Origin: a virus
Taxonomy: Duplodnaviria; Heunggongvirae; Uroviricota; Caudoviricetes
Strand: one strand, 5' to 3'
DNA: 64,000 nt
IMG/VR virus record: IMGVR_UViG_3300043425_000245
How positions within the stretch are numbered: the stretch's first letter is position 1; each line of letters begins with the position of its first letter. The notes beneath the pieces were generated by a model that had not been told where the DNA came from, did not search any database, and saw nothing but the letters and a program-made list of their open reading frames with translations. Made by a program: the position numbers and the translations under genes. This document shows, one piece after another, positions 28,891-63,466 of the stretch.

Positions 28891-28919
28891 TTTACTTTTA
28901 TTCCAAAAACAGGTATAAT
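28891..28919 (+). promoter_or_regulatory. Early sigma70-like promoter (TTTACT-N17-TATAAT)
   Basis: Same family. Preceded by an imperfect hairpin at 28867-28890. Confidence 0.55.
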
Positions 28920-28940
28920 ACTTGTATAGTCTGATAAATT

Positions 28941-38883: not shown

Positions 38884-39055
38884 ACGTCGTAAATTCGATA
38901 TGAATAACAAGGAAGATGTAGAGATCTATAAACATTTCCTTGTTCATAATGATTGGAAGATTGTGGGCAGCTGTCCCTTTGAATTGGAATATCCATATAC
39001 AAGTGTTCCAGATATGATTAAAGATAAACTGATTAGAAAGTTTTTGAAGGTGTAA
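38861..39055 (+). CDS. Hypothetical small protein
   Basis: AAGGA RBS before ATG 38861. Overlaps the ligase 3' end. Confidence 0.3.
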   Translation: MPALKLNERRKFDMNNKEDVEIYKHFLVHNDWKIVGSCPFELEYPYTSVPDMIKDKLIRKFLKV

Positions 39056-39056
39056 A

Positions 39057-46899: not shown

Positions 46900-48273
46900 A
46901 TGAGTATTGATGCTGGAAGAAATGTGAAGGTAGTTGTATTAGAAGCCCCAGAGGTTGTGCCTCGCCCAGATTTAGTTGGTACATGGTTGGATGAAACTCA
47001 TTACCACACACTGGTTGAGTCTGATATGGATTTGTACTTGCCTGCAAAGTGCGCCACAGACTTATCTGATCCAGATTGCAACAAGCAATGTAGTGGTTGC
47101 GCAAAAGGTCTTGATGAACGTAACATCGTTTTCAAGTTCCGTAAGAACTACTTCAGTGATGAAATGACAAAGTCTGCTTACGAAGGTCTTCGTGACGCAG
47201 CTACTGAAACTCAGAACCGTGGTACTGCTGCTGGTCCACGTGGTGAGAAGCTACAAGGTCGCGACTGGGTTACAGCGTATCAATGGGATATTATTGAAGC
47301 CTTTAAGAAGGGTGCTGGTAACTTGTTGGGTGAAGACCCGATTGAAGCTATCCAAACTAAATATGCCGAAGGTCGTGACCAAGCGTCTAACCGTGCTCAA
47401 GTATGGCTCCGCGATTCAGTTGCAGATGCTGGGTTCCAATTTGATGACTGGGTTGAAACAACTCGCCGTAAACCTGCAGCTGAAGCGTCAGCTGATGCAG
47501 CTTGGGTTGAAGACAATCTAATCTCTAAGACTACTTACGCAAACCCAGTGAACTCTGGTATTGCTGGTTGGTACGATCGTTATCCACGTATCCCTTATGG
47601 TCGTGCAACTTCTTACACTGAGAAGCAATTCGATAAGTTCAAGAAGTCTTACCCATACCTTCAGCATCTGTCTAAAGCGTTCGCTGAATTGTTACCATGG
47701 CGTTATGGCAACCAGAAAGCCGCTGCGGATAAGATTGATCCACGCTTCTTGGTCCCAAATACTCCATTCAGTACAATTACTGTAAACCGTAACTTCAGAA
47801 CTGCAGCCCACTATGACCCCGCAAATATGGATGATGGTTTCGCTAATATCTGCGTGTTTAGTAACTCTGATAATTATAGAGGTGCTTACTTGGTATTCCC
47901 CGAGATTGGTTATGCTGTTAACATTCGTCCAGGTGATTTACTGTTCGTTAATAACATGGCTGGTCTGCATGGTAATACTGAATTGATTCTGGATGACCCT
48001 AATGCTGAACGTATCTCTATCATTGCATTCTTCCACGAAGGTATGTTGACTCTTGGTTCTATGGAGTATGAAAATGCTCGTCGTAAGTTCGTTGATCACT
48101 GCAAGAACGATGTTAACAACCCTCACTATCGCCCACGCTTTAACGGTGTATACGCTGGAATGTGGGAAAGCCAAGAGTGGTATGACTTCTGTAAGAAAGA
48201 AGTTGGCGAAGCAGAAACCTTGAAGATGCATCCAGAATCTAATGCTTCTTCACTAGATGAGTTCTTTGCCTAA
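46900..48273 (+). CDS. TET/JBP-family 2OG-Fe(II) dioxygenase (5-methylpyrimidine or thymine oxidase) with N-terminal Cys-cluster region
   Basis: AAHYDPANMDDGFANICVFSN gives H-x-D-x-x-N (TET2 AHRDLHNMQNGSTLVCTL). LHGNTELI matches THGSILIE. ERISIIAFFH matches TET2 NRISLVFYQH (2OG-binding Arg and terminal His). N-terminal CATDLSDPDCNKQCSGC cysteine cluster. Confidence 0.75.
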   Translation: MSIDAGRNVKVVVLEAPEVVPRPDLVGTWLDETHYHTLVESDMDLYLPAKCATDLSDPDCNKQCSGCAKGLDERNIVFKFRKNYFSDEMTKSAYEGLRDAATETQNRGTAAGPRGEKLQGRDWVTAYQWDIIEAFKKGAGNLLGEDPIEAIQTKYAEGRDQASNRAQVWLRDSVADAGFQFDDWVETTRRKPAAEASADAAWVEDNLISKTTYANPVNSGIAGWYDRYPRIPYGRATSYTEKQFDKFKKSYPYLQHLSKAFAELLPWRYGNQKAAADKIDPRFLVPNTPFSTITVNRNFRTAAHYDPANMDDGFANICVFSNSDNYRGAYLVFPEIGYAVNIRPGDLLFVNNMAGLHGNTELILDDPNAERISIIAFFHEGMLTLGSMEYENARRKFVDHCKNDVNNPHYRPRFNGVYAGMWESQEWYDFCKKEVGEAETLKMHPESNASSLDEFFA

Positions 48274-48980
48274 TGTGTGCCGTAATTGGAGCAGTTATTA
48301 AGAATCCTTCTCTGAAGGATTTTGAAGCCCTGAAGCGTGTGTTCGTCGAGTCTAAGATTCGTGGTATGCACGCAACAGGTATGTCATTCTTACCAAAGTG
48401 GACTGATGATATTGTTACAATTAAGGAAGCTATCCCAGCGGATCAGTTCGTTGAGAAGCATATGCATAACGACAACTTCAAAGAGTTCATTAACAAGGAT
48501 GGTAACTTATATCTGATCGGTCACTGTCGTTACTCGACATCTGATTTGGAATATAACCAACCTATGGCCAATGCAGACAAATCAATTGTCCACAATGGTG
48601 TTATCACTCAAGAGCTTCCAGAACACTGGAAAGAGTTGTATGGTTATGACTGCGCAACAAAGAATGATTCTGAGTTAGTCCTGCATTCAAACGATCCTCT
48701 TGATGAGTTCAACAATATGTCCATGGCAGTTTGTACTCTCACGGCTTCTCCTAAAGAGTTGACTGTTTATCGCAATGGTAAGCGTCCATTATATTTGACT
48801 ACTCTATCGAATGGTAGTATAATTACCTCTACAGCAGATATTGCCAAACGTGCTAATTTGTATTTTCCAAACATGGAAATTCCAATGGACACATATATCA
48901 CGTTTGACTCAGCCTTAACTATGAGGATGCAACTTGTTAAAACAGGAAACAAGGATTTACAGAATGTACAACAAAAGTGA
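48273..48980 (+). CDS. Class-II glutamine amidotransferase / Ntn-hydrolase-like protein (N-terminal Cys nucleophile)
   Basis: Starts MCAVIGAV (Cys2 nucleophile as in MCGIVG GATase-II). Immediately followed by an amidoligase gene, the conserved PF12224 neighbourhood. Confidence 0.6.
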   Translation: MCAVIGAVIKNPSLKDFEALKRVFVESKIRGMHATGMSFLPKWTDDIVTIKEAIPADQFVEKHMHNDNFKEFINKDGNLYLIGHCRYSTSDLEYNQPMANADKSIVHNGVITQELPEHWKELYGYDCATKNDSELVLHSNDPLDEFNNMSMAVCTLTASPKELTVYRNGKRPLYLTTLSNGSIITSTADIAKRANLYFPNMEIPMDTYITFDSALTMRMQLVKTGNKDLQNVQQK

Positions 48981-49836
48981 TTTTACATATGGTATGGAGA
49001 TAGAGTGGGGAGATGTTCCCCGCTCTTTTTCAATTCCGGAACAACTAGGTTCTTGGGAATACTCCGAGCGTGACATTATCAACCTTCGTGCACCATACGC
49101 AAACGTGTGCGCCGATCCGTTGGGTGTTGAACCGCCAATGGGTGGTGAGATTAACACCAAGCCAACTAGAACTTGGCAAGACCAAGTTGATCGTTATTTT
49201 GAACTGAAAGATTTATTCAATGAACAAGGTCACGACCCAACTGTTGGTGTTACTGCTCATACCCATATTCATTGCCGTGTCCCAGGTCTTCGTGATGATA
49301 TTGATGCACTGAAGCGTCTAACAAAATACATCAAAGAGAATCAAGCTGCAGCCATTGAACATGTATATGGCTTCTTTGAGCACAACCAGATGAAGGGTGC
49401 CAAAGGTTCTAAGATGTATCTGAAGTTTGATGGTGGTCGCCCAATGCCTGACTACATGAGCGATAACATTATCAACCTAGCAACTGACTTTGATTCTTTT
49501 ATCAAGATGCACGCCGCAGGTAAAGATGGTGTATCAATGGGTCGTCCATTCCGTTTCGCTATTAACATGTATGCGTTGAAGCATATTGACACTGTAGAGT
49601 TTCGATTGTTCCGTGGCACGTTAGATCGTACTGAACTAGAATCATGCTTCCGTTTTGTTGAAGACTTCCTTGATGCTGCATTGAATGATGGTCCAAGCGT
49701 AAACGATCTTATTTCTGAACGTGGTTATAAGTTCCCTCCGATGCAATGGGACTTGGCTCAGTTTATCGGTTGGGAAAAGACTAAGCACCCAGAAGAACGT
49801 GGCAAGAAAGTGAGAACATACGTTGAAGTTGAATAA
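48964..49836 (+). CDS. Amidoligase-family enzyme (glutamine-synthetase/GCS2-like)
   Basis: Conserved gene-pair context with the GATase-II-like protein. E/H-rich catalytic region ...TAHTHIHCRVPG...VEFRLFRGT. AAGGA RBS before ATG 48964. Alternative starts 48934 and 48994. Confidence 0.5.
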   Translation: MYNKSDFTYGMEIEWGDVPRSFSIPEQLGSWEYSERDIINLRAPYANVCADPLGVEPPMGGEINTKPTRTWQDQVDRYFELKDLFNEQGHDPTVGVTAHTHIHCRVPGLRDDIDALKRLTKYIKENQAAAIEHVYGFFEHNQMKGAKGSKMYLKFDGGRPMPDYMSDNIINLATDFDSFIKMHAAGKDGVSMGRPFRFAINMYALKHIDTVEFRLFRGTLDRTELESCFRFVEDFLDAALNDGPSVNDLISERGYKFPPMQWDLAQFIGWEKTKHPEERGKKVRTYVEVE

Positions 49837-50374
49837 GTGTACTCGTGACCAATTCATCAAAGCTATCTCTGATGATAAGGCTGACAAGTTTGCTAAGACT
49901 TTCGTGGCCAAAGCAGACATGCAGGAACAGTGGGATGATTGTATCGGTGCCTTCAACGAAGAAGGTGAACTGATGGCTGCTATCATTACCACTATCTCTA
50001 AGCGTAAACCTTTCGTTGCTAATCTACAGCTGCTTCACACCTTTGCTAAACACAGGGGTCAGGGAGCAGCTAAAGCGTTATGTGAAGCATCACTTCGTCA
50101 TGTTAAGAGTAAGCAAGCGTTGTACTTTCGTGTATCGTCAGAACCAGAATCAGTTGGCTTCTATGAGAAGATTGGTTTCAAGTTCTGGGGTAAACAAAAG
50201 TCTGGTTGTCAGTTGAGTATTTTCCGAATTGATGGCGATACCTTCTTCGAGGGAGACTACGACTATACAGACCAGATGATCAACGGAGCCATCCATAAAA
50301 AGGGAAAAGGTGGGTGTGTAGAGGTATTTGACCTCACCGAAGCCCAGAAACCCCTGACTCTAGAAGGGTTTTGA
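49823..50374 (+). CDS. GNAT-fold acetyltransferase
   Basis: HTFAKHRGQGAAKALCEASL (R-x-x-G-x-A motif A). ...FYEKIGF typical GNAT C-terminus. TTG start in the ORF track; the true start may be downstream. Confidence 0.5.
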   Translation: MKLNKCTRDQFIKAISDDKADKFAKTFVAKADMQEQWDDCIGAFNEEGELMAAIITTISKRKPFVANLQLLHTFAKHRGQGAAKALCEASLRHVKSKQALYFRVSSEPESVGFYEKIGFKFWGKQKSGCQLSIFRIDGDTFFEGDYDYTDQMINGAIHKKGKGGCVEVFDLTEAQKPLTLEGF

Positions 50375-50379
50375 GGGTA

Positions 50380-50408
50380 TTTACTTTTATTCAAGAATAT
50401 AGTATAAT
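50380..50408 (+). promoter_or_regulatory. Early sigma70-like promoter (TTTACT-N17-TATAAT)
   Basis: Same family. Precedes ATG 50436. Confidence 0.55.
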
Positions 50409-50435
50409 ATATCTATAACTTGAAAAGGATTTATT

Positions 50436-51722
50436 ATGATTCATACCACTAACTTCTATCTCTACGCTTGGTTGAAACCAGAACCATATACAGTAAATAT
50501 GGGTAAGAAGGTTTCTCAGAAAACCTCTTATGTTTCATCAGCGTCATCTCAAGAGTTTTGGAATGATTTTGGTAATGCGAAACTACAACAATATTGTATT
50601 TTTGAATCTGATGATGAAGCCGTGGTCAGTGCGGCTGAATGGTGGGGTTTAGATTATGGTATGAAAGTTTTGGGTAAAGGTAAGTTCTACAACAAATCTA
50701 ACAACGCTCACCGTGGCGATCAATCATTAGTAACAGAAGAAATCAAACAGAAGATCGTTGACTTCTATGATGGTAAACTGAAGCCAGACGTTAATGTTGA
50801 TACATTCTCTCTTGGTCGAAACATTATCGACAAAGTTGAGAACGGTTTTTACCCAATCGTACAATTTCCAGTATATAAGTTGGTTGAGATGCAACGCAAC
50901 CAAGCACGTGCAATTGAACAGAACGTTGTTACTGAAGACCAGATTGTTCGAGCATATAATGATGACCCGAAACAAGTATTGCGCGATATTACACCAGCGA
51001 CGTTAGTAAAGCGACCAGATGGTAGTCTTGAAATTGTTAACGGACATACCCGCATCGGCGCTGCTTCTAAGTGTCGTGGGTGGAACGAGATTCCTGTTTG
51101 TATTGTAGAAGAGTCTGAATTTGGTGATACAGAGAAAGATATTGCTACTAATATCTTGCTTGCTGGTAGTTATGCCAACCGTCGAAGCCCTGTCATCACT
51201 AAAGAAAATACTGATGAAGACCTTATGTTCCAGATGGAAAACTATTTGGTCATTCAGGAGATGGACGCATCCGTTGAAACTGCTCAACCGTATATCCGCG
51301 AGGTTCTTACTGCGGAATTTACAAAGAGCGCAGGTTCTAAGCGAGCAGCATCAGGTATCGTCACTAAGATTTTTAATAAGTACGAGAAACAGAAGAACGA
51401 AATGTCAATTGCTAAGAACATGATTGTTTATAGCGACGCTGAACTTCGTACATACTGTTATCAGAAATATGAGAAACACGGCATCGCCGCTGTTCACTCA
51501 ACTATGAGTAGCATGGCTCACTTTGACCCACTTGGTTTTATTTTCCACCACGCGAGTCACATGAATACTCTTCCAAAGAAACTCGCTATTGTTCTTCACT
51601 CCAGGACAAAAGATGAATATGTAAAAGGACAAGCAGCTGGTAAAGTTGCAGCGATGCAAAAGGTCATTGATGGTTATAAATTACCTATCACGATTGATGT
51701 CCTGCCAGCATTTGAAGAATAA
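50436..51722 (+). CDS. ParB/Sulfiredoxin-fold (ParB-like nuclease domain) protein
   Basis: DGSLEIVNGHTRIGAASKCRGWNEIPVCIV resembles the ParB-Srx core (DG.HR..A, IP). About 428 aa. Confidence 0.45.
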   Translation: MIHTTNFYLYAWLKPEPYTVNMGKKVSQKTSYVSSASSQEFWNDFGNAKLQQYCIFESDDEAVVSAAEWWGLDYGMKVLGKGKFYNKSNNAHRGDQSLVTEEIKQKIVDFYDGKLKPDVNVDTFSLGRNIIDKVENGFYPIVQFPVYKLVEMQRNQARAIEQNVVTEDQIVRAYNDDPKQVLRDITPATLVKRPDGSLEIVNGHTRIGAASKCRGWNEIPVCIVEESEFGDTEKDIATNILLAGSYANRRSPVITKENTDEDLMFQMENYLVIQEMDASVETAQPYIREVLTAEFTKSAGSKRAASGIVTKIFNKYEKQKNEMSIAKNMIVYSDAELRTYCYQKYEKHGIAAVHSTMSSMAHFDPLGFIFHHASHMNTLPKKLAIVLHSRTKDEYVKGQAAGKVAAMQKVIDGYKLPITIDVLPAFEE

Positions 51723-52741
51723 TGGATTACAGACTAAAAGAAAACAGAAGAGAAGCCTTCATCCGCTGGTACGCATGGTCAATGAAATATGATGACTGTG
51801 ACCCAGCGGTTTGGGCTACAAACTATCTTCATAAACGTTATGAACATAATGACGAAGAACGTATTTGGTTTGCATGGTTATATGGTAACACATATCAACT
51901 GCCAACTGCTTGGGTTCTTAAGAATGAATTCCCTGACTACGAACTTGCCACGGTAGATCGTATCACTCAATGGAATACAACCAACTACAAACGACTCCGT
52001 TACCAGACTGATACGAAATGGAACAAGGGTCATCTTCCAGCAATGTTTGAATCGTATCAAAATTTTATTGGAAAGAAGACTCAACGTGAAACACTCGAAT
52101 CGTACTACGTCGGTGATGCTAAAGAAAACTTTGATGCTCTGTGGAGCGTTCTTAAGTCAAGGCTTCATAAGTTTGGTCGTTATTCTACTTGGTTCTATAT
52201 GCAGCATCTTAAGCACACTGCTGGTATTAACATTGAGCCTAGTTCTCTTATGTTGGATGATTATGATGGTTCCCGTTCTCATCGTAATGGATTACTTTTT
52301 GCCGCTGGGCGTGATAACGATGTTGATCGAAAACTCACTGGAAGCGAGTATGGAGACCTTGAAGCATTTGGCGAGGGAATCAGGGTTGAAATGCTAGACA
52401 GGTTTCCTGAACTAGCAAATCAAATTGACTTCTTTACTATGGAAACCTGTCTGTGTTCTTTCAAGAAAATCTTTAGAGCAAAGCACGGTCGCTATCTTGG
52501 ATATTACCTTGACCGTCAAGCTGAAGAGATTATCAAAGCTGAAGGTGATGGATGGTATGGTATTGATTGGAATGTTATGTGGCAATCTCGAAATGAAACA
52601 ATCGACTTGCGACTAGACCACAAGAATGGCATCAATAAAGAAAAGTTTACTTTCTTCCTGAACTCAGGTAAAATAGATAACTTAGAATGGATGTTTGAAG
52701 ATGAAGAAAAACCCTTAATGGGATTGGAGATGTTTACATGA
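51722..52741 (+). CDS. Hypothetical protein in the modification cassette
   Basis: ATGG overlap with the upstream gene. Trp/Tyr-rich. No motif I can assign from sequence alone. Confidence 0.4.
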   Translation: MDYRLKENRREAFIRWYAWSMKYDDCDPAVWATNYLHKRYEHNDEERIWFAWLYGNTYQLPTAWVLKNEFPDYELATVDRITQWNTTNYKRLRYQTDTKWNKGHLPAMFESYQNFIGKKTQRETLESYYVGDAKENFDALWSVLKSRLHKFGRYSTWFYMQHLKHTAGINIEPSSLMLDDYDGSRSHRNGLLFAAGRDNDVDRKLTGSEYGDLEAFGEGIRVEMLDRFPELANQIDFFTMETCLCSFKKIFRAKHGRYLGYYLDRQAEEIIKAEGDGWYGIDWNVMWQSRNETIDLRLDHKNGINKEKFTFFLNSGKIDNLEWMFEDEEKPLMGLEMFT

Positions 52742-53175
52742 ACCCAGATGACGTATTAAATGATGTGATGCAAGGAAGTCTTACATTAAGCGACGGCAAT
52801 TATTCTGTTGTAACAAATAGCGGTCTTGCACCAATTGGTATTAGTAGTTGGTCGGCTCATAATGCTATGACTGCTGCTACACCTCTCCCAAAGATTACAC
52901 GCACAGTGGATGAGATTATGGATGAGCATAGCCTCAACCGTATCGCTGTTGATCATAAAGTAACTGCTCAAGAGCTATTGAAGCTACAAGAGGTTGCCCA
53001 TGATTATGCCTCTGAGATTAAAGAGAACATCGCCAAGAACTTAGCACGTGATATTGCCAAGAAGGTTATGTTCAAAAAGAAACACGATAAGGATGCTGAC
53101 GTTCATCACTTCATCGGTCGTGTTTGGGTATTCACTGATGAAGAATTGAAAGAGTTACTGAATAATGTTCATTGA
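52738..53175 (+). CDS. Hypothetical protein
   Basis: Coupled ORF. Confidence 0.35.
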   Translation: MNPDDVLNDVMQGSLTLSDGNYSVVTNSGLAPIGISSWSAHNAMTAATPLPKITRTVDEIMDEHSLNRIAVDHKVTAQELLKLQEVAHDYASEIKENIAKNLARDIAKKVMFKKKHDKDADVHHFIGRVWVFTDEELKELLNNVH

Positions 53176-53770
53176 TAAAATTAAAGCGAATGATGAAGTC
53201 ACCATTCAACTTATTAGAGCGGAGAAAAAAGTGAGAAAACTTATTGCTGTTGGTGGTAGCCCAGGAACTGGCAAGACCACGTTGTTCCGTAAGTATATGG
53301 AAAGTAAAGTATTCCAACCAGTTGAACCAGCCAAGCTAGTTTCAGCCATGTATAATACTGAGCGTGATCTATACATCCTTGGTAAGTATGAAGAAGGCGA
53401 AGTGTTCGCTGGAACCGACCGTCTTTCTATGGCAGTTCAGCCAGCCATGCAGGAGTGGATCGCTTCCCATAACTGTAACGTTCTATTTGAAGGTGACCGT
53501 ATCTTCAATCAGTCTTTCCTAGAGTTCGCCATGGGTCTCCCAGATACCGAGCTTCATATCGTATTCCTGAACGCACCTAAGACAGTTCTCGAACAGCGAT
53601 ATAAAGATCGTGGTTCTGATCAGTCCGAGCAATTCCTAAGAGGTCGCGAAACTAAATATAGTAACCTGTTATCAAATTTTGACTTGATGCCTTATATTAC
53701 TGAGTTTGCAAATACTAACTTAGAGGAACAAGCGAAAGTCTTAGCCTTCCTAGAAGGACAATTAGGGTAA
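53165..53770 (+). CDS. P-loop kinase / NTPase
   Basis: Walker A LIAVGGSPGTGKTTLF, Walker B-like LFEGDR. About 200 aa. Not convincingly T4 gp1-like. Confidence 0.5.
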   Translation: MFIDKIKANDEVTIQLIRAEKKVRKLIAVGGSPGTGKTTLFRKYMESKVFQPVEPAKLVSAMYNTERDLYILGKYEEGEVFAGTDRLSMAVQPAMQEWIASHNCNVLFEGDRIFNQSFLEFAMGLPDTELHIVFLNAPKTVLEQRYKDRGSDQSEQFLRGRETKYSNLLSNFDLMPYITEFANTNLEEQAKVLAFLEGQLG

Positions 53771-53794: not shown

Positions 53795-54502
53795 ATGAAT
53801 TTCCTAGAACAATCTAACTTTGACTGGATGGAAATGCTCAACTTCACTGAGCGTCCATTCCGAGCTAAACTCAACCCATCAAAAATATGGAGAGACCTAG
53901 ACGAGTATGAAAATAACTCCGTCGGTCTCTCCAACTACTTTAAGAAGTGGAGAACTAAAGTAGAGTTCAGACAACCTCTGAAGAAATCGTGGTCAAAATA
54001 CGTTGCTGTCGGTGGCGAGTATTCTCCAGATGACCGTCAATGTTGTATCCAGATATATTCTTTTGACTTCGATAAACATAAATTTGAAGTCAAGACTTGG
54101 AACAAATTCAAGTATCGTGTCATACAAACCTTAATGCATGAGATGATCCACTTCATGCAGTACGATCGTCGCAATGACGAGTACAGTAATTATGTCCTGC
54201 CGCACAAGAAGGTTGGACACTCTCTAAAAGACGCTGAACGTTCATACCTATCTGAGTTTGATGAGATACAAGCATACGCTCATTGTGTCTATCTAGACTT
54301 TAAAATGAACAGACCAAACGTTTCATTAGAAACTTTATTGGCCAGAGTCAATAACAAACGAGACTCTTCAACGCTACATTATATCCTTAAGACCTTTGAT
54401 TACGATTTTAAAAACAATTATGCCATACCAAAACTAATGCAGCATATTGTTAAGTGGGATAGGAAATATAAACTAAATAGTCAGTATGTCAATAAGGGAT
54501 AG
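53795..54502 (+). CDS. HExxH zinc-metallopeptidase-like protein
   Basis: LMHEMIHFMQYD HExxH motif. No further family assignment. Confidence 0.4.
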   Translation: MNFLEQSNFDWMEMLNFTERPFRAKLNPSKIWRDLDEYENNSVGLSNYFKKWRTKVEFRQPLKKSWSKYVAVGGEYSPDDRQCCIQIYSFDFDKHKFEVKTWNKFKYRVIQTLMHEMIHFMQYDRRNDEYSNYVLPHKKVGHSLKDAERSYLSEFDEIQAYAHCVYLDFKMNRPNVSLETLLARVNNKRDSSTLHYILKTFDYDFKNNYAIPKLMQHIVKWDRKYKLNSQYVNKG

Positions 54503-54504
54503 TA

Positions 54505-55830
54505 ATGGCTAAACTGGCTGTAAAAGATTTTAAAGGTAAGCACGGCGAAACACGTATCATTGCCCTGCTTGAAAAACTGATTGAAGGTGTAAAATCTCCG
54601 TTTACCACTGCGGACGGTAAACAACAACCATTCAACCGAATCTCTTATCCAGACCCACGTACTGGTAAACTAGTTTCTAAGAACGCACTTGACTTGGCAG
54701 ACTCTGCTGACATCGCCAACGTTATTCGAGCAGGTTCAGTTTCATTTAAACAAATCAACTTAACGTATGAACGAAACGGGCAAGTTTCTGCTCTAGTACC
54801 TCTGAGTGATATCATGAAGACCGAAGACTTCGGTGGTAAGAGCAACCGTGGTGATATGGCTGAGATTATCTTTAGCGCAGCTATTGCTTGCCGATTCTTA
54901 AATAAGAACCAAGCTGTTATTGATAGTGACGTATTGGATATGATCAAACGTCTTAACGATACTGACACAAGACAGGTTATTGGTCCACTAAAATCGCCAA
55001 ACAAAGAACCAAAGGTTGTTGATGATTTGTACTGGGAAGTAAACTCTGCGCTTATTAACATTAAAGCGTTGAAGAACCCTCGACATATCAAGAACTTGAA
55101 AAGTATTATTAACTCCAGCGTTAAGTACGCCAACTCAACTACTGTTGCTGCAAACGCAAAAGTTGTTTATGAAAACAGCTTATATAACAGGATAGAAGTA
55201 AAAGCAATTGGTGTAGTTGCACAGAATGACACCAAGGTTGACGTTTACGTTGAAATTGATAATAAGAAAGTTAATATCAACGTTTCGCTAAAAGCAGCTG
55301 GCGCAAAACAATTTGGCCAAGTTGGTGGTGGTGGTTTAGATAAACAAAAAGACCTTTGGGAAACTCTCTTAGATTTAAAAGTCTCGCCAGCTTTAGAAAA
55401 GAAATATTACATGGTTCTGAAATCAGACGGATTAATTGCAGCAAATACTGAGGTGTACAAAGGTATGGTTGCTGAGTTCAACCGCAAGATGACTTCCAAC
55501 CAAGAGGCAGTTTACAATAGCCTTGCTGATGGTCTAATGTATTTTGGAACAAGGAATGATCCAACAGTGGATATGGTATCATTAAGCAACAAAGAGGCTA
55601 TGATTTATAAGTTTGGTAACTTATCTCAAGCTCTAAGGCTAAAGAACCGAGAACTAAAAGCAGTTTTTGTTTCTAATAAAAGTAAACCAGAAGTGAGATT
55701 TCAAGACGTGAAAACAGGTTCTATCTTATTCACCGTTAGACTAAAGGGTGAAACAAAGAACAACTATGTTCGCCACTATATTGAAAAGGGTAAGATGATG
55801 ACAGAACTAGTTGGTTTGGTCGCAGCCTAA
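54505..55830 (+). CDS. Hypothetical protein
   Basis: 441-aa ORF. No recognisable motif. Confidence 0.4.
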   Translation: MAKLAVKDFKGKHGETRIIALLEKLIEGVKSPFTTADGKQQPFNRISYPDPRTGKLVSKNALDLADSADIANVIRAGSVSFKQINLTYERNGQVSALVPLSDIMKTEDFGGKSNRGDMAEIIFSAAIACRFLNKNQAVIDSDVLDMIKRLNDTDTRQVIGPLKSPNKEPKVVDDLYWEVNSALINIKALKNPRHIKNLKSIINSSVKYANSTTVAANAKVVYENSLYNRIEVKAIGVVAQNDTKVDVYVEIDNKKVNINVSLKAAGAKQFGQVGGGGLDKQKDLWETLLDLKVSPALEKKYYMVLKSDGLIAANTEVYKGMVAEFNRKMTSNQEAVYNSLADGLMYFGTRNDPTVDMVSLSNKEAMIYKFGNLSQALRLKNRELKAVFVSNKSKPEVRFQDVKTGSILFTVRLKGETKNNYVRHYIEKGKMMTELVGLVAA

Positions 55831-55866
55831 ATATAAAGATATATTGATGGATCAAAAGGAATTCTA

Positions 55867-57102
55867 ATGTTAAATTTTAAAAGTTTCTTAAAGGAATCGC
55901 TTCTCCAAGAAGAGTTGCTCCTAGAAGCTAATCATACTAAAGATGTTGAAAACGACGACAAGGGTAAAATGCACGAACTACTTCTAGCGAAGTATCTTCA
56001 CCCTGATTCAACTCTTCCAGAACATCACCGCTCAGAGTCTGAAAACGAAGACCACGCTGGTACTCCAACTCAAGTTCACGATCGTCTTAAGAAAAAGATG
56101 GGTGACGCTGCATACTCTCAGATCGACGAACACGCAAAACAAACTGCTAAATCTATTCACGCTCACCTGAAGTCAGCTGGACACGTTGGTGAAGGGCAAC
56201 ACATCGGGCGAGTATTCTGGACATCAAACGCTGATAAGCCAGGAAAGCCAGGAGACCACGAAAAGACTACTGGTGTTAAAGACGTAAACTCCAACGCTGA
56301 CGTTATTGTTCGTGTCCACGATAAAGACGGTAAGACTGTTGGTCACGTTGGTGTATCTGCCAAGTATGGTTCACATAAACCAAACTATCGCAATCCTGGT
56401 CTAGATTCTATGGAGAAGACTGCTGGTCTTCAAAAGGGTTCTTTAAAGAAGCTATCCGACAACCACCATGCGCATATGGAAGAACTTGGTTACAATGGTC
56501 CAGCGACTCAACGTCACATTCAATACAAAATTGATAAGATGGGTATTGATAAGGCTCGTGCTGAACACTCTAAGTTTGAAGGTTTGTTGGCAAAGGGTAA
56601 GACCCTAAGTTCAAAGAATAAAGTCACACACGAACATCTTGCAAAATACATTTCTGCGCATGACGCATTAAAGCCTACTGAACAAGCAGCGTTTGAACAG
56701 AAAGCTCAGACAAGAGCAGCGACTGCCGAGGTATCAGCGCTGCACGCTAAACGTGCCATGGCTAAACACTTCTCTGAAAGTATGGCTAAGAAGTCTGATG
56801 ATGAGTTACGTGATATTGTTCGTCAACACGTATCCGCACCAACTCATATCCCGCATATCGTTGCTCACTCCAAAGTAAAAGATAGTGGTGATGCTGAATC
56901 GCACGTTGTTCCATCACACAGTATTGCGGATGATCACTTAGCCAACTTTGATAAGCTACACGTTGTACACAATGGCGGTATCTCTACTGTGATCAAAGGT
57001 GTCCATAAGAAGACTGGTAAAGTAACAAACGTTGGTTCTTTCACCATGAAGGGTTCTTCTGGTCCACACAAAGGTGTCGCTGGCACATTCTCATTGAGCT
57101 AA
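55867..57102 (+). CDS. Candidate capsid-targeted internal protein A (His-rich)
   Basis: N-terminus MLNFKSFLKE fits the T4 capsid targeting sequence pattern (T4 IPIII MKTYQEFIAE) and ends with a gp21-type L-x-E cleavage site. About 9% His. A TATAAAGA/CTAAATA box lies at 55827-55839. Confidence 0.5.
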   Translation: MLNFKSFLKESLLQEELLLEANHTKDVENDDKGKMHELLLAKYLHPDSTLPEHHRSESENEDHAGTPTQVHDRLKKKMGDAAYSQIDEHAKQTAKSIHAHLKSAGHVGEGQHIGRVFWTSNADKPGKPGDHEKTTGVKDVNSNADVIVRVHDKDGKTVGHVGVSAKYGSHKPNYRNPGLDSMEKTAGLQKGSLKKLSDNHHAHMEELGYNGPATQRHIQYKIDKMGIDKARAEHSKFEGLLAKGKTLSSKNKVTHEHLAKYISAHDALKPTEQAAFEQKAQTRAATAEVSALHAKRAMAKHFSESMAKKSDDELRDIVRQHVSAPTHIPHIVAHSKVKDSGDAESHVVPSHSIADDHLANFDKLHVVHNGGISTVIKGVHKKTGKVTNVGSFTMKGSSGPHKGVAGTFSLS

Positions 57103-57103
57103 T

Positions 57104-58882
57104 ATGATCAATTTTCTAAATTTCTTATTAGAAGCTGAAGAGGAAGGTGCTAAACTAAAGCACATTCACCACGCTGAAGACCGTCCACTTCTACACGGAG
57201 AAGATGGCTTTGAACACGCTTATGGTGCTCTTCAAGCAGCGCACCATCACACTGTACAAGGGCTTCAGTCTCATAAGATGACAATGAAGTATGATGGTTC
57301 TCCATCAGTTGTGTTTGGTCACCACCCCGAGAACGGTAAGTTCTTTGTGGCATCTAAGTCAGCGTTCAATAAGAACCCAAAGATTAACTACACTCCAGAA
57401 GATGTAGATGCTAACCACGGACATGCTCCTGGTCTAGCCGATAAGCTAAAGTCTGCTCTTAAGCACTTCCCTAAAGTTTCTCCAAAGTCTGGTGTATATC
57501 AAGGCGACTTGATGTTTACTCACGATGACTTAAAGAAGAAAGGTGATAAGGTTTCGTTCACACCTAACACTATCACTTATACAGCCAAGGGTGATAAGGC
57601 TGAAGCTATTAAGAAGTCTAAGATTGGTGTAGTTGTTCATACCAAATACGAAGGTGATAAACTAAGCAGCATGTCTGCTCACCATAACGTTTCCGGAAGT
57701 GATTTCGGTCAACACCCAGACGTATTCCATCACACTGCTGATTATGATGCTTCTGGGGCTCACTATTCTAAGCAGTCTCAAGATTCGTTTAACAAACATA
57801 TGTCCGCTGCTCGTGCTATTCACGCTGAGCATAAGGGTAAGATGTACAAAGCTACATCTATGCACCATGGAGACGGTGGACATCTAGCCACATACATCAA
57901 CCAAACTGTGCGCGAAGGTACTACACCAGACGCTGAAGGTTTGAAGACTCATATCGCTGGTAAGTATGAGAAGATGGTTTCTAAGCTAAAGACTGAAAAA
58001 GCTCAGAACGCTAAACTGGATGAACTAAAAGGTCACTTGGATCATATCAAGAAGAACCAAGGTCACTACGATAACCTATTGAAGATGCACGGTCACCTTC
58101 AGTCTGCCAAGAACGAACTTGTTAAGTCTCTAGAATCTAACGAAGGTTCTTACGAACACGCTATCAATGGCGAGGCTTCTAAACCTGAAGGCTTCGTTTA
58201 TAACCATACACATAATGGTGTTACAGAACCTACTAAGCTGGTCAACCGTGCAGAGTTTGCCCGTCAAAACTTATTGAAGGCTCGTACTCCTTCAAAAGAA
58301 GCTGTTGAGAAGCATGGCGTTCTAGCCTTTGGTCGTATGAACCCGCCAACTGTTGGTCATGAACAAGTTATCAACAAAGTCAAAGAAGTAGCCAAAGCTC
58401 ACAACGGTGATCATAAGGTTGTTCTATCACATAGCCATGATGAAAAGAAAAACCCTTTACCTGCTGATGTTAAAGTAACACACGCTCGTAATGCTTTCCC
58501 AGGAACAAACATTGAAGCTGCTTCTAAAGAGAAGCCAACTATTCTTCACCATGCTGCTGACATGTACGCTAAAGGTACTCGTCACTTACACGTTGTTGCT
58601 GGTTCTGATCGTACAGAAGAATACGAAAAGTTACTGAATAAGTATAACGACGGTTCTGAACATAAACACGGCGCATACAAGTTCAAGTCAATCACAGTTC
58701 ACTCGTCTGGTGAACGTGACCCAGACGCTGAGGGTACTGCTGGAGTATCAGGTACTAAGATGCGCGAATTAGCAGCTGCTGGAAAACAAAAAGAGTTCCA
58801 CGCTGGTTTACCAACACACATGAAAGACTTACACAAGTCTGCTCTTTATAATGATTTAAGAAAACATATGGGGGCAAAATGA
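57104..58882 (+). CDS. Candidate internal protein B: KxDG (RNA/DNA-ligase-like) N-domain fused to HxGH nucleotidyltransferase domain
   Basis: N-terminus MINFLNFLLE (CTS-like). Motif-I-like MKYDGSPSVVFG. C-terminal region AFGRMNPPTVGHEQ (NadM/NMNAT-like GRFxPxHxGH variant). Confidence 0.5.
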   Translation: MINFLNFLLEAEEEGAKLKHIHHAEDRPLLHGEDGFEHAYGALQAAHHHTVQGLQSHKMTMKYDGSPSVVFGHHPENGKFFVASKSAFNKNPKINYTPEDVDANHGHAPGLADKLKSALKHFPKVSPKSGVYQGDLMFTHDDLKKKGDKVSFTPNTITYTAKGDKAEAIKKSKIGVVVHTKYEGDKLSSMSAHHNVSGSDFGQHPDVFHHTADYDASGAHYSKQSQDSFNKHMSAARAIHAEHKGKMYKATSMHHGDGGHLATYINQTVREGTTPDAEGLKTHIAGKYEKMVSKLKTEKAQNAKLDELKGHLDHIKKNQGHYDNLLKMHGHLQSAKNELVKSLESNEGSYEHAINGEASKPEGFVYNHTHNGVTEPTKLVNRAEFARQNLLKARTPSKEAVEKHGVLAFGRMNPPTVGHEQVINKVKEVAKAHNGDHKVVLSHSHDEKKNPLPADVKVTHARNAFPGTNIEAASKEKPTILHHAADMYAKGTRHLHVVAGSDRTEEYEKLLNKYNDGSEHKHGAYKFKSITVHSSGERDPDAEGTAGVSGTKMRELAAAGKQKEFHAGLPTHMKDLHKSALYNDLRKHMGAK

Positions 58883-59280
58883 TTTCGTTTAAAGACTACC
58901 TAGAAGAAAAGAAAAAAGATCCATGCTGGACTGGTTATGAAGCCATCGGTATGAAAGAAAAGAACGGTAAGAAAGTTCCAAACTGCGTTCCAGTTAAAGA
59001 AGAAAACGAACTGGATGAAGCAGCAACTGCAGACGGCAAAGGTCATAAGTCTGCAACTGGTGGTCTTACTCAAAAGGGTCGCGATGCTTACAATCGCGAA
59101 CACGGTAGCAACCTAAAGGCACCTGTAACTACTCCACCTTCTAAACTAAAGAAGGGCAGCAAAGCTGCTAACCGTCGCAAGTCTTTCTGTGCACGTATGT
59201 CTGGCGTAGATGGTCCAATGAAGAAACCAAATGGCGAACCTACTCGAAAGGCTCTTGCCTTAAGAAAGTGGAACTGCTGA
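58879..59280 (+). CDS. Candidate internal protein C (small, basic)
   Basis: N-terminus MISFKDYLEE (CTS-like). Lys/Arg-rich. Confidence 0.45.
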   Translation: MISFKDYLEEKKKDPCWTGYEAIGMKEKNGKKVPNCVPVKEENELDEAATADGKGHKSATGGLTQKGRDAYNREHGSNLKAPVTTPPSKLKKGSKAANRRKSFCARMSGVDGPMKKPNGEPTRKALALRKWNC

Positions 59281-59319
59281 TACGCTAAATAATACTGTTA
59301 CTAATTATTGATGGATTAA

Positions 59320-61800
59320 ATGAAGAACTATAAAGAACTCCTAAGCGAGCTACCATCCAAGTCCGTGGTTTTCACATGCGGAAGATTCAATCCCCCTAAC
59401 GTGGGTCATGAGCTTGAGATCAAGGTAGTCCGTAAATTAGCGAGTCAGCGCAAAGCTGATCACTTCATTTTTGTATCTTCGGTACAAGACGCTAAAAAGA
59501 ATCCATTAGAAATTAGTAAAAAGATGCAGTATTTGGGAAGTCTATTCCCAAATACAAAATTCGTACATAAAGAGATAGATACTATCGGCTCTGTCCTTAA
59601 AAAGTACAAGAGTGTTACTTTAGTGACCCCAACTGATAACGTTGAATACTATAAGAAAGCGTTGAAGAAAGTTGGTATCACTGATGTTGAGATTGTTAAG
59701 GCTGGAGATACTTGCCCTGATGAAGACGACAAGCTATTGAAGTTGGCATCAAAGGGTGAATTTGTATCGTTTAAAAACAGTCTACCAACAACAGTCAGAG
59801 AATTAGACGGTAAGCGTCTAATGAATGATATTCGTATTGGCTTGAACCTTGAGCCAATCAGAGAACAAATTAACTTGGTTAAGGACGACCTGCGTGAACA
59901 GTATTTCCGTGGTGAGATTTTTAACGAAGGTGATATCGTTGAAAGCGATAATACAGTATATAAAATTATCAAACGTGGCTCTAATCATTTGCTGTTACAG
60001 AATGAAGCTGGTTTAAAAGTGAGTAAATGGATTCAAGACGTACAACTAACCGAAAGAGAATTTATGTTAGACGAAAAACTATTACAAGAAGCTGACGCTG
60101 CTGCAGCCACTGGTTTGGCCACTGGTAACAAAGAAGCTAAGAAAGCACAAGCTGATACAGAGAAGATGAAACTTGCTCTTGATCAAGCCAAGGAAAAAGA
60201 AGACCTAGCCAAGCAACAAGAACGCGAGCGCCAGAATCTTAAGAACATCCCAGAAGAATGCGGTTGCAAAGATTCTCCAGTTGTTGATAAGTCTAAGAAG
60301 TATAACATCGCTAAGTCTATCATGAGTCTAAGTGACTTCCGTAAGTCTACTGGTCAAATGACTAAAGATGAGACTGAGATTGCTGATAAAGTAAAAGATG
60401 GTCTAGTTGGTAACTCTCACTTACATACTGACCACAGTATGCGTCACCGTAAAGTAAAGTATCACTTGGGTGAAGGTAACGGCTACGATGATAACCGTAC
60501 TGGATTTGCTAAGAAGCCTCGCGAAGACGATGAGTACCACAACGAACCAAAACCAAAGTTCAAAGCTAAGTCTCTGTTAGATCGTCCACACACTGTTCAC
60601 ATTGACGGCAAGCCATGGAAGAAGTTCGACAACGGTCACCAAGCCCAAGCTGCCGCTAAGACGCTACGTGCTAAAGGTAAGAAAGCTAATGCTATCGCTC
60701 ACTTCAGAGAAGAAGTTGTGAATGAAGTTAACAAACATTCAACTCTTGGTAGGATTCTTCGTGGTCATGAGTTGAAGAAAAAGGTAGATTCTTCTTTTGA
60801 AAAGATCGGTGACGCCCAAAAGAAAGGTGTTGATGGTAGCAAAGCATTTAGAGACCATGAGCGATACGCTAACCTAGAACGTCCAGGCACTTGGACAAAG
60901 GTTAAAGAAGAAACTGATGAGCAACAAGCTACTCGTACTGCTCAACTAAAGCGTTTCAAAGATCAAGCTAAAGAATCTAAGCTAACTGAAGCACAAGTTG
61001 ATGAAGCAGTAAAGACAAAGGTTAAAACTGTGAACGTTGATAAAGTTCACACAGCTGGTCAAGAACCTCACGAAGAAAAGTTTGAGACAGTTAAAGAAGA
61101 AGCTGTAACTGAGGGGTATTTTGTTCATAGAGAAAAAGATACAAAGTTACACTTTAATACAGTAGCTCAGTTAAGACAATCTAAAACACCTTCTCATTTA
61201 AAAGTTACAGATCATAAACACAACCATTTAGGTACTGTTGCTGACGTTTTGAGAAATCAAACTTTATATAAAACCGAAGAAACTGAATTTGATGACATCG
61301 ATGATAATGAATTAGCTTCTCTAGTTGAAGCTGATATGGATGCTTTAACTGAAGATGATTTCTTCGAAGCATATGATGATGAAGAACTAGCAATCATCGA
61401 CGATGAGACTGGCGAAGAAATCGAAGCCGTTGATTCAGTCACTGAAGAAGCTCTGATGGAAGTTCTATCTAGAGTTGAACGTATCCGTGCTAAAGCTCGC
61501 ATGCGTCGCAGTCAAACTAAGCGTGAGCGTAGAGAGAAGGTTGCTCTACGTCAACTATCAACACCGCAAGTAGCAAACAAGCGTGCTCGTCGTATGGCTG
61601 TTTCTGCTCTTAAGAAGCGTCTTCTAAGAGGACAAAATGCTTCTAAGATCTCCGTTGGTGAGAAAGAACGTGTTGAGCGTTTCATCCAACAACGTCGTAA
61701 AGTTGTAGACCGTCTAGCTGCACGTATGGTTTCTCGTGTTAAACAAGTAGAAAAAGCTCGTATGTCTCACAAGAAATATACTAAACCAGCAGGTATCTAA
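59320..61800 (+). CDS. Candidate internal protein D: HxGH nucleotidyltransferase domain plus long charged coiled-coil and basic tail
   Basis: N-terminus MKNYKELLSE (CTS-like). TCGRFNPPNVGHE nucleotidyltransferase motif paralogous to internal protein B. E/K-rich low-complexity centre. Arg-rich C-terminus. Confidence 0.5.
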   Translation: MKNYKELLSELPSKSVVFTCGRFNPPNVGHELEIKVVRKLASQRKADHFIFVSSVQDAKKNPLEISKKMQYLGSLFPNTKFVHKEIDTIGSVLKKYKSVTLVTPTDNVEYYKKALKKVGITDVEIVKAGDTCPDEDDKLLKLASKGEFVSFKNSLPTTVRELDGKRLMNDIRIGLNLEPIREQINLVKDDLREQYFRGEIFNEGDIVESDNTVYKIIKRGSNHLLLQNEAGLKVSKWIQDVQLTEREFMLDEKLLQEADAAAATGLATGNKEAKKAQADTEKMKLALDQAKEKEDLAKQQERERQNLKNIPEECGCKDSPVVDKSKKYNIAKSIMSLSDFRKSTGQMTKDETEIADKVKDGLVGNSHLHTDHSMRHRKVKYHLGEGNGYDDNRTGFAKKPREDDEYHNEPKPKFKAKSLLDRPHTVHIDGKPWKKFDNGHQAQAAAKTLRAKGKKANAIAHFREEVVNEVNKHSTLGRILRGHELKKKVDSSFEKIGDAQKKGVDGSKAFRDHERYANLERPGTWTKVKEETDEQQATRTAQLKRFKDQAKESKLTEAQVDEAVKTKVKTVNVDKVHTAGQEPHEEKFETVKEEAVTEGYFVHREKDTKLHFNTVAQLRQSKTPSHLKVTDHKHNHLGTVADVLRNQTLYKTEETEFDDIDDNELASLVEADMDALTEDDFFEAYDDEELAIIDDETGEEIEAVDSVTEEALMEVLSRVERIRAKARMRRSQTKRERREKVALRQLSTPQVANKRARRMAVSALKKRLLRGQNASKISVGEKERVERFIQQRRKVVDRLAARMVSRVKQVEKARMSHKKYTKPAGI

Positions 61801-62289: not shown

Positions 62290-62730
62290 ATGGAAGAACT
62301 AACCGCATCTCTACACATCGCTCTTGCTAATACGTTCGTTATGTATTTCAAGGCGCACTCTTATCACTGGAACGTTGAAGGTAGAGACTTCATTCAACAC
62401 CACGATTTCCTAAACGATCTGTACACAGAACTACATGATGCAGTTGACCCATCAGCTGAACGTATCCGTGTTATCAGTCAATATGCTCCGCATAGCCTTA
62501 AAGACCTTCTAGAGTCTTCAACTATTGAGGAAGACGCAGACGTACCTTCTTCTGCCGATGAGATGTTCCAAAACCTTTTAGATGCAAACTCTAAAGTGAT
62601 CGATAGCCTAAATAAAGTATTCGAGTTAGCAACAGCAGCTAATAAGCAAGGTATTGCCGATTTTGCAGCTTCTCGCTTAGATACTCACGATAAACATGGT
62701 TGGTTCTTGAAATCAATCTTAAAGGGTTAA
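62290..62730 (+). CDS. Dps-like ferritin-fold protein (DNA protection during starvation family)
   Basis: FVMYFKAHSYHWNVEGRDFIQHHDFLNDLYTELHDAVDPSAERIRVISQ matches Dps [45 protein letters not shown]. C-terminus DKHGWFLKSIL matches DKFLWFIESNI. Confidence 0.7.
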   Translation: MEELTASLHIALANTFVMYFKAHSYHWNVEGRDFIQHHDFLNDLYTELHDAVDPSAERIRVISQYAPHSLKDLLESSTIEEDADVPSSADEMFQNLLDANSKVIDSLNKVFELATAANKQGIADFAASRLDTHDKHGWFLKSILKG

Positions 62731-62731
62731 T

Positions 62732-63466
62732 ATGTCATTAAAAGAAGATACAGTATCTGCCGATCGTAAAGAACGTATTATTTTCGATCCAGAGGCTTGG
62801 AGAAAGTCTGATAAGTCTGGTAGAAAGACTTCAGCTATTACTTCGCGCCAGAACTTCGATAACGAGAAGTTTACTCGTAATGCAAAAGACAAGGTCGACG
62901 AAGGTACTATCCAACCTAGTGGTGATTCTAAAGTAGACTCAGCTGGTCCAACTCAGTCTGATACTATCTCTGATACCAAAAAGGTTAAGAAGTCAAATAA
63001 TGCACAAATCGAATTTGTTACTGGTAACGATCAACCTGTTGGTTCTGCCAGTACAGCTATTGGTAGCGCACAAGCTACTGGTAGAAAAATTGCAGAAGCA
63101 TTGATCAGTAAAATTATGGCAGAGAAGTGCTCAGATGCTTCTAAAGATGTTAAGAAAAAAACTGTTAAAAAAGAGGAGACTAACATGTCTGAAAAACTAA
63201 CTTACGCTCAGTTCGTTGAGCAACTTCTAGAGTATACACCTGGTCCTGGCGGCAGAACTGTTGTTAAGGGACGTTCATATGGCGCATCTTATGATGCAGG
63301 TGAAGATGAAGACGATAAGCCAGCAAAGCCAGCAGCTGACGCTCCAAAGCGTGGTCGTGGTCGCCCAGCAGGTTCTAAATCTGGTGCAAACCAAAAAGTA
63401 ACAAAAGGTAAGTCTTACGGTGGTATTGCTACTCACTCTTTGAACCTACCAAACTCTAACAGATAA
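62732..63466 (+). CDS. Hypothetical protein with C-terminal AT-hook (PKRGRGRPAGSK)
   Basis: Canonical RGRP AT-hook core. Otherwise low complexity, S/T/K-rich. Confidence 0.45.
   Translation: MSLKEDTVSADRKERIIFDPEAWRKSDKSGRKTSAITSRQNFDNEKFTRNAKDKVDEGTIQPSGDSKVDSAGPTQSDTISDTKKVKKSNNAQIEFVTGNDQPVGSASTAIGSAQATGRKIAEALISKIMAEKCSDASKDVKKKTVKKEETNMSEKLTYAQFVEQLLEYTPGPGGRTVVKGRSYGASYDAGEDEDDKPAKPAADAPKRGRGRPAGSKSGANQKVTKGKSYGGIATHSLNLPNSNR

Follow-up and report, generated by a model that had tools for sequence, protein, structure and literature searches.

Candidate head-internal proteins of a marine T4-like phage: a ligase-like DUF6267 domain fused to a HIGH-type nucleotidyltransferase domain

Described here is a cluster of four consecutive genes, referred to as A to D, found in a 64,000-nucleotide stretch of DNA (the window) from the IMG/VR virus record IMGVR_UViG_3300043425_000245. 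The window is part of the genome of a marine T4-like myovirus, and all of its predicted genes are located on the + strand. On balance, the evidence inclines toward a model in which proteins A to D reside within the head and are ejected, and in which protein B combines two linked nucleotidyl-transfer activities, one ligase-like and the other of the HIGH type. The cluster is organized as follows.

55867..57102, + strand: protein A, 411 residues, isoelectric point (pI) 9.1, 9.0% His, the first gene of the cluster
57104..58882, + strand: protein B, 592 residues, pI 9.1, 9.3% His, with a decapeptide resembling a capsid-targeting sequence (CTS), a DUF6267 domain and a HIGH nucleotidyltransferase domain
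58879..59280, + strand: protein C, 133 residues, pI 9.7, a DUF6321 protein (Pfam PF19846, 6.9e-27)
59320..61800, + strand: protein D, 826 residues, pI 9.1, with a HIGH-domain paralogue (residues 12-165), a small conserved domain (residues 166-245) and a long charged tail as the remainder

Genes A, B and C are nearly contiguous, the intervals between them being +1 and -4 nt. The N-terminal decapeptides of the four proteins read MLNFKSFLKE in A (nt 55867-55896), MINFLNFLLE in B, MISFKDYLEE in C and MKNYKELLSE in D; the N-terminus of T4 IPII and IPIII is MKTYQEFIAE. The pattern M..[FYW]..[FYLIVM][LIVM].E was scanned against the N-termini of all + strand open reading frames (ORFs) of at least 50 residues in the window, and it matched only these four consecutive ones. 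A rough estimate from typical residue frequencies puts the chance of a match at ~5e-4 per ORF. In T4 the first ten residues are enough for targeting, with positions 4 and 7 important for targeting itself and positions 8 and 10 directing the cut made by gp21 (PMC9026906). Proteins A to D agree with the T4 decapeptide at all four of these functional positions. Indeed, they carry an aromatic residue at position 4, a hydrophobic residue at position 7, Leu or Ile at position 8 and Glu at position 10, in the manner of T4 IPI, IPII, IPIII and Alt. The corresponding feature of B is the following.

57104..57133, + strand: B residues 1-10, MINFLNFLLE, predicted to be a capsid-targeting propeptide that is cut after E10 at an L-x-E site

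The tag is a property of the families and not of this phage only. The consensus N-terminus of the DUF6267 family is MxxFxxFLxE, with E10 conserved in at least 90% of the sequences, and that of the D-type family is MKDYRQLIxELPSK..GKFNPPTxGHE. The tag is kept in the orthologues encoded on a 171-kb metagenomic contig, where two additional small proteins are likewise tagged, and the orthologue of A in the relative L007 (55% identity) begins with MLKFKDFLRE. A targeting peptide of the T4 type needs a gp21-type protease and a gp22-type scaffold. Both are encoded in the window, as is a gp55 late sigma factor.

17015-17665, + strand: gp21-type prohead protease (phrog_207, 3.3e-74)
17710-18741, + strand: gp22-type scaffold (phrog_237, 2.7e-81)

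Proteins A to D are also basic, as are the T4 internal proteins; together with three neighboring ORFs they have pI values of 9.1-9.7, the rest of the proteome being mostly acidic. Furthermore, a tagged homologue is known from virions. Mass spectrometry of purified virions identified S-CREM2 gp154 ('cytidylyltransferase') (PMC10665884). This protein starts with MKNFSSFLTE, is homologous to both B and D, and is 33.5% identical to residues 396-569 of B (E 6e-25). The N-terminal Cys-containing segment of C matches a second virion-detected S-CREM2 protein, gp160. On the basis of the T4-like capsid-targeting N-termini, the basic pI values and the virion-detected homologue, the assignment of A to D as internal proteins, which had already been put forward in the initial annotation, is well supported.

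According to this model, A to D would be expressed late, and the N-terminal decapeptide, M-x-x-[F/Y]-x-x-[F/Y/L]-L-x-E, would dock them onto the scaffolding core. The gp21-type prohead protease would then cleave them after E10, and the basic mature proteins would remain associated with the DNA and accompany it into the cell. For A to D, packaging and cleavage are what we infer by analogy with T4. There are also differences from the T4 proteins: the mature parts of A to D lack sequence similarity to T4 proteins, and their genes are clustered whereas those of T4 are scattered. T4 Alt provides a precedent for enzymatic cargo. To our knowledge, neither ligase-like nor HIGH nucleotidyltransferase folds have been described for the cargo of T4 internal proteins.

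The sequence CTAAATA, which resembles the core of a T4 late promoter, precedes two of the three transcription units.

55827..55833, + strand: CTAAATA, T4 late-promoter-core-like, 40 nt upstream of A
59285..59291, + strand: CTAAATA, late-promoter-core-like, 35 nt upstream of D

From its position, the first copy would drive A, B and C. The motif lies 32-59 nt upstream of the sheath gene (59 nt), the major capsid gene (34 nt), ORF 54505, A and D. Its 14 copies in the window are all located on the + strand, with 0 on the - strand. The canonical T4 late promoter, TATAAATA, was also considered; it occurs only 4 times in the window, is not enriched and is not found near the cluster.

Several observations weigh against packaging. 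The 14 copies of CTAAATA compare with 11 expected, and thus the motif shows no overall enrichment in the window. The authors of the S-CREM2 study noted that the virion signal for gp154, which consisted of three peptides, may be carry-over (PMC10665884). Many cyanophage DUF6267 proteins, such as S-PM2 p141, are devoid of a targeting peptide, and in the literature searches no proteomic report for DUF6267 itself was found. B could be imagined as an unpackaged cytoplasmic enzyme of replication or repair, namely an accessory ligase with a cofactor-making domain, whose decapeptide either signifies something else or is meaningless. The genes of S-PM2 and HTVC008M do indeed belong to the replication module, where gp43, UvsX and gp41 precede them and gp61 follows; the cluster in the window likewise comes after UvsX and gp41, and DUF6267 of the S-PM2 type begins directly at the conserved KHLEHLED with no tag. 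Such a role is unlikely, however, given that the tag occurs on four adjacent ORFs and on no other, that it is kept over families of 31-56% identity, that A to D are basic, that they share CTAAATA with the capsid and sheath genes, and that a tagged homologue has been detected in virions. In addition, a replicative-ligase role is not needed, for the window encodes a canonical DNA ligase and a PNK-like kinase (37594-39527).

37594-38883: ATP-dependent DNA ligase, 429 residues (phrog_114, 2e-128), motif I KMDGMR with K155
directly after it, the pair spanning 37594-39527: PNK-like P-loop kinase, 156 residues

This pair is a separate end-healing and sealing set of the phage, and DUF6267 as its missing replicative DNA ligase was thereby ruled out. 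Since the phage has its own replicative ligase, the role of B is likely to be specialized.

Residues 19-392 of B match Pfam DUF6267 (1.5e-95) and also PHROG 455, both of which are families of unknown function. DUF6267 comprises 1,984 clusters at 50% identity and is present in 468 phage records, nearly all of them from cyanomyoviruses and always annotated as hypothetical. The elements of the domain are as follows.

57152..58282, + strand: B residues 17-393, DUF6267 domain, predicted to adopt a covalent nucleotidyltransferase fold (lysyl-NMP, where NMP is a nucleoside monophosphate)
57284-57319, + strand: B residues 61-72, motif I-like MKYDGSPSVVFG, with K62 at nt 57287-57289
57491..57517, + strand: motif III-like GVYQGDLMF (Q133-G134-D135), at least 90% conserved
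58184..58249, + strand: PEGFVYNH, motif IV-like (E362-G363), and PTKLVNR, motif V-like (K378, R382), which occupy adjacent strands

The AlphaFold model of full-length B has a predicted local distance difference test score (pLDDT) of 85.6; its disordered parts are residues 1-19 and the linker 394-400. When the DUF6267 domain was modeled by itself from a diverse alignment, the pLDDT was 94.3 and the predicted template-modeling score 0.91. The model displays the nucleotidyltransferase-domain fold of the covalent nucleotidyltransferases. K62 is positioned at the end of a strand formed by residues 55-62, followed by a hairpin loop, and the sequence K62-Y-D-G provides a KxDG motif I with a candidate nucleophilic lysine. 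K62 is thus predicted to be the nucleotidyl-accepting residue. Note that KxDG by itself is frequent, with 9 occurrences in the genes of the window and no excess over chance, such that the weight of the motif comes from its invariance in the family and from the fold rather than from the string alone. In an alignment of 57 DUF6267 sequences of 31-56% identity, H23, K62, G72, K85, G175, H179, E362, G363, K378 and R382 are invariant, and D64, G65 and Q133-G134-D135 are conserved in at least 90%. The conserved candidates QGD135, H179-T-x-Y, E362-G363 and K378-L-V-x-R382, assigned by pattern alone, lie on β-strands and follow the order of the ligase motifs III, IIIa, IV and V. The motif I of B, TMKYDGSPS, resembles TKEDGSLV of T4 Rnl1. 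The comparison table for the DUF6267 domain contains the following values.

Naegleria RNA ligase: 9.6
T4 Rnl2 adenylyltransferase domain (1s68): 8.8
T. brucei REL1: 8.8
S. solfataricus DNA ligase: 8.5
T4 Rnl2, full length (2hvq): 8.2
tRNA ligase (6n0t): 7.6

With the RNA ligases (NgrRnl/Rnl5, T4 Rnl2, REL1 and T4 Rnl1) the domain shares a KxDG(S/T) motif I that lacks the Arg of DNA ligases and capping enzymes, and an EG(F/Y)V motif IV followed by a Lys-bearing strand. It differs from them in the absence of significant sequence-profile similarity, in a helical insert of ~120 residues (residues 223-343) between motifs IIIa and IV, in the lack of an Rnl2-type C-terminal domain or an OB domain, in an invariant N-terminal H-x-x-H-x-E-D segment, and in a motif V that consists of one Lys plus an Arg (KLVxR).

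The searches themselves count on the other side. With the isolated DUF6267 domain, Foldseek returned nothing at E <= 1e-3; ligases account for nine of the 13 top matches, the best of which is weak (E 0.049). With the full-length model only HIGH-domain matches were obtained. No ligase family was retrieved for DUF6267 in Pfam, NCBIfam or PDB profile searches, Pfam detected neither of the Rnl2-family domains (PF09414 and the C-terminal PF18043) in B, and phmmer and profile searches of B against solved structures gave nothing useful. Alignments by hhalign to T4 Rnl2, T4 Rnl1, gp30, the ligase encoded in the window and the Rnl2 family profile were all non-significant, with a probability of 0.1% for the last. 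The best local matches, likewise non-significant (E 0.15-0.41), fall at motifs III, IV and V of the T4 ligases: on IDGELVY of the DNA ligase, and at motifs IV/V of Rnl2 (AEGYV) and Rnl1 (EGYV...FKIK), the latter two with E 0.15-0.24. Because every profile comparison was non-significant, the ligase assignment rests on fold and motifs, and that of K62 as the ligase lysine on motif and secondary-structure logic. The expression 'ligase-like by fold and motif pattern' is therefore to be read as a description of the predicted domain rather than of a demonstrated activity. The KxDG ligase-like domain of the initial annotation survives at the level of the fold. It does not survive at the level of sequence profiles, where a lack of significant ligase matches had been named beforehand as counting against it.

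The C-terminal portion of B and the N-terminal portion of D belong to a different class of nucleotidyltransferase.

58304..58879, + strand: B residues 401-592, HIGH-superfamily (PF01467-like) domain
58325-58366, + strand: B residues 408-421, AFGRMNPPTVGHEQ, containing signature 1, GRMNPPTVGH
58742-58765, + strand: signature 2 of B, GVSGTKMR
59374-59412, + strand: D residues 19-31, TCGRFNPPNVGHE

All of the motif strings quoted in the initial annotation, namely MKYDGSPSVVFG and AFGRMNPPTVGHEQ in B and TCGRFNPPNVGHE in D, are present where it had placed them. The two domains are paralogues, as it had proposed (BLASTP, 30% identity over 196 residues, E 4e-21), and a six-frame scan of the window for GR[FM]NPP..GH gave two occurrences only, one in B and one in D. 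B residues 401-592 and D residues 12-165 match PHROGs 3041 and 395 ('cytidyltransferase') and, weakly, Pfam CTP_transf_like. Both the Rossmann-like fold and the curated score that define HIGH-signature nucleotidyltransferases were observed. The (H/T)xGH signature takes the form GRMNPPTVGH in B, with G418-H419 invariant, and GRFNPPNVGH in D, with H30 invariant in the D family. In B, signature 2 provides a loop of the ISxTxxR type in which S549, K552 and R554 are invariant. The 'HxGH' domain of the initial annotation is consequently correct as to the type of signature in both proteins. A literal HxGH is found in neither (T-V-G-H in B, N-V-G-H in D), and D is devoid of the second signature.

In D and its nearest relatives, a seven-residue deletion takes out the GxSGT loop; other D-type proteins keep GMSASKMR. 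The orthologue of D in L007 reads GDFDPPTTAHE, in which the Gly of the Gly-His pair is also lost. As judged from its sequence, D is probably a degenerate copy and probably impaired in catalysis. Having lost the phosphate-binding SGTKxR loop, its paralogous domain would probably act as a weak or non-catalytic binder. The segment that follows in D, residues 166-245 (window 59815-60054), contains the invariant residues R172, E182, R192, G204, R219-G220 and K236-W237 and corresponds to phrog_4808 and to S-PM2 p144. The database label of the latter, 'ribonucleotide reductase alpha subunit', is almost certainly a misannotation given its length of only 91 residues.

The loss of signature 2 in D, the sequence of its L007 orthologue, the unusual His content of 9%, the high pI values and the lack of a sequence-level ligase signal would all suit packaged pseudo-enzymes, that is, basic, His-rich cargo that condenses DNA or serves as a scaffold. 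Such an explanation is nonetheless quite unlikely. K62, D64, G65, E362, G363, K378 and R382 are invariant or nearly so over about 2,000 clusters, and these are precisely the positions of the catalytic motifs. The HIGH domains of the B type retain both Gly-His and SGTKxR as invariant elements. The His enrichment of A and B, which the initial annotation had correctly pointed out, is real (9.0% and 9.3% versus a window median of 1.95%), but most of these residues are lineage-specific, H23 and H179 alone being invariant across the wide DUF6267 family. Metal binding by the His tracts is conjecture.

The acceptor used by the HIGH domain of B is less easily assigned. By hhalign, the family profile aligns with the characterized NatV of KVP40 at E 1e-4, with GRMNPPTVGH paired to GKFNNYHQGH and SGTKMR to SSTSVR, and B possesses both signature motifs of the NadM, NadD, NadR, NatV and PPAT enzymes. 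Moreover, GxFNPPTxxH and (I/V)S(S/G)TKxR resemble the signatures of eukaryotic-type NMN adenylyltransferases (NMNATs) such as 9rpk (GSFNPPTFMH), and S-CREM2 gp154 has a true HKGH. NMN or NaMN, which would yield NAD+, is the leading candidate acceptor. It is a serious possibility, falling somewhat short of probable, that the domain is not an NMNAT and that B contains no NAD+ module, the acceptor being 4'-phosphopantetheine as in PPAT, another phosphorylated metabolite, or RNA as in TmcAL. In place of the first His of HxGH, B has Thr, which gives the TxGH found in PPAT, and D has Asn; PPAT yields equally good scores. The NCBIfam NMNAT model TIGR00482 reaches 15.2 bits against a cut-off of 112.45, and only for D, with no match for B. 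The best PDB sequence match is the MJ0951/TmcAL homologue, on GISGTKIRE (E 0.05). In contrast to known NMNATs, the domains of B and D have no Nudix or kinase partner domain and no NadV nearby.

Indeed, NadV was not found in the 64-kb window (best tblastn E 1.7). Its distribution among phages is also different from that of the 'cytidylyltransferase' (CT) domain. NadV is present in 2,020 phage records, and the names Synechococcus, Prochlorococcus and Cyanophage are outside the ten most frequent (<55 records each), whereas the CT domain is present in 375 Synechococcus, 24 Prochlorococcus and 61 Cyanophage records and is carried by almost every cyanophage. In a published survey, every phage with NadM has NadV too (PMC9503650). 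NAD+ salvage together with NadV was consequently rejected on the basis of its absence from the window and the poor co-distribution with the CT domain, and the NAD+ reconstitution suggested in the initial annotation gains no support from these data. The NARP2 pathway (Nampt plus Nmnat) is similar in that a phage-encoded NMNAT-like enzyme could in principle rebuild NAD+, but the window contains no Nampt/NadV and capsid delivery is not part of NARP2. An NMNAT alone is unable to rebuild NAD+ from ADP-ribose and nicotinamide.

The two domains of B are repeatedly associated. DUF6267 and the HIGH domain are fused in the order seen in B and in the reverse order (P0141), and they are encoded by neighboring genes in HTVC008M and S-PM2 (p141/p142). 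Given these arrangements, they probably act in one pathway. In the S-PM2 record NC_006820 (L001 5983-7762) DUF6267 is split, with its N-terminal part in p141 and the rest in p142 together with the cytidylyltransferase domain; in the resequenced S-PM2 (LN828717) there is a single continuous match over one annotated 'hypothetical protein'. An error of sequencing or annotation probably accounts for the split, in which case the B-type fusion exists in cyanophages too. DUF6267 is also fused to a Pol-beta-type nucleotidyltransferase in one relative and to LysM in another.

In the favored model for B, DUF6267 would form a covalent K62-NMP intermediate and most likely transfer the nucleotide to a 5'-phosphate end of a nucleic acid, with sealing being optional. 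The HIGH domain would join a nucleoside monophosphate from a nucleoside triphosphate to a phosphorylated small molecule. Candidate roles for B would include the early joining or modification of RNA or DNA ends, coupled to the synthesis or recycling of an adenylylated cofactor. Both the covalent catalysis and the substrates are what we infer from the predicted domains, and a role of B or D against host defenses is conjecture. A more specific version, which we regard as a long shot, is that B is a capsid-delivered, self-recharging end-joining enzyme. Within seconds of infection, DUF6267, adenylylated by NAD+ or ATP, would seal or cap broken RNA or DNA ends, and the NMNAT-like domain would interconvert NMN plus ATP and NAD+ plus pyrophosphate, thereby supplying the ligase when NAD+ or ATP is depleted by host defenses. 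LigA is an example of a ligase that is adenylylated by NAD+.

The cyanophage 'cytidylyltransferases' of PHROG 395/3041 (S-CREM2 gp154, S-PM2 p142, HTVC008M gp130) are 33-38% identical to the domains of B and D and show conserved synteny. They differ in that the domain is here fused to DUF6267 and duplicated in D. In the case of S-CREM2 gp154, homology to NMNAT and delivery at infection have already been discussed (PMC10665884), and the copy in S-SCSM2R was annotated as NMNAT and treated as a counter-defense (PMC12801897). A virion-borne 'cytidylyltransferase/NMNAT' that conditions the host at entry is thus already published, with no mention in these two papers of the targeting peptide or the ligase-like neighbor. 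The literature searches revealed no prior report on DUF6267, its ligase-like fold, or T4-type targeting peptides in these marine phages.

DUF6267 with an adjoining 'cytidylyltransferase' is present in the genomes of several hundred T4-like cyanophages, as well as in myoviruses of SAR11 and OM43. These phages rank with the most abundant viruses of the oceans. DUF6267 occurs in nearly all Kyanoviridae cyanophage records searched. If the enzymes are injected, nucleotide-transfer chemistry would be delivered before any phage gene is expressed, and the paradigm of the T4 internal proteins and Alt would gain new activities. Were the self-recharging scheme true, it would give DUF6267 its first function and define a new class of injected nucleic-acid-repair and cofactor module. 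K62-dependent adenylylation is a concrete biochemical hypothesis for a large DUF, and with the short targeting tag, the set of proteins ejected by uncultured T4-like phages could be predicted from sequence.

With respect to the overall setting, no close relatives of the phage at the nucleotide level were found among sequenced phages. Methylophilales phage Melnitz, Pelagibacter phage HTVC008M and hundreds of Kyanoviridae cyanophages encode proteins with ~35% identity to B, and fused homologues at 60-85% identity are numerous in metagenomes. Protein A has no match in Pfam, PHROG or NCBIfam. The head and tail genes of the window encode the large terminase, sheath, tube, portal and major capsid protein, and those for replication and late control encode gp55, gp46/47, gp45, gp44, gp43, UvsX and gp41. 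The GC skew is 0.13-0.16 over 38-42 kb, a stretch extending from the ligase/PNK genes up to where the polymerase gene begins, and about 0.0-0.09 elsewhere. Auxiliary genes of the marine T4-like type are located at 26716-30095 and 35696-36178; they encode a peptidase of 711 residues (phrog_459), a 'porphyrin biosynthesis' ATPase (phrog_249) and Hsp20.

Genes for base hypermodification lie directly upstream of the cluster (window 46900-53770).

46900-48273: Tet/JBP dioxygenase
48273-48980: glutamine amidotransferase
49823-50374: GNAT
51722-52741: ADDT amino-acid:DNA transferase
53165-53770: P-loop nucleotide kinase 3

This gene set suggests that the phage DNA contains a hypermodified base of the amino-acid type. 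In the relatives L006 and L007 the set includes an extra radical-SAM gene and a second 2OG-Fe(II) gene. Two further basic ORFs, both without the targeting tag, are found just upstream of A (window 53795-55830). The product of one has 235 residues and a pI of 9.2, contains an HEMIH (HExxH) motif and gives a weak SprT-like match; the other, which is preceded by CTAAATA, encodes a 441-residue protein (pI 9.5) of phrog_3560. Adjoining the cluster, in the window (within 62290-63466) as well as in L006 and L007, is a gene for a Dps/ferritin-like protein, here of 146 residues (PF00210, 6e-23). It is followed by a basic protein of 244 residues with an AT-hook-like segment, RGRGRPAGSK, at its C-terminus.

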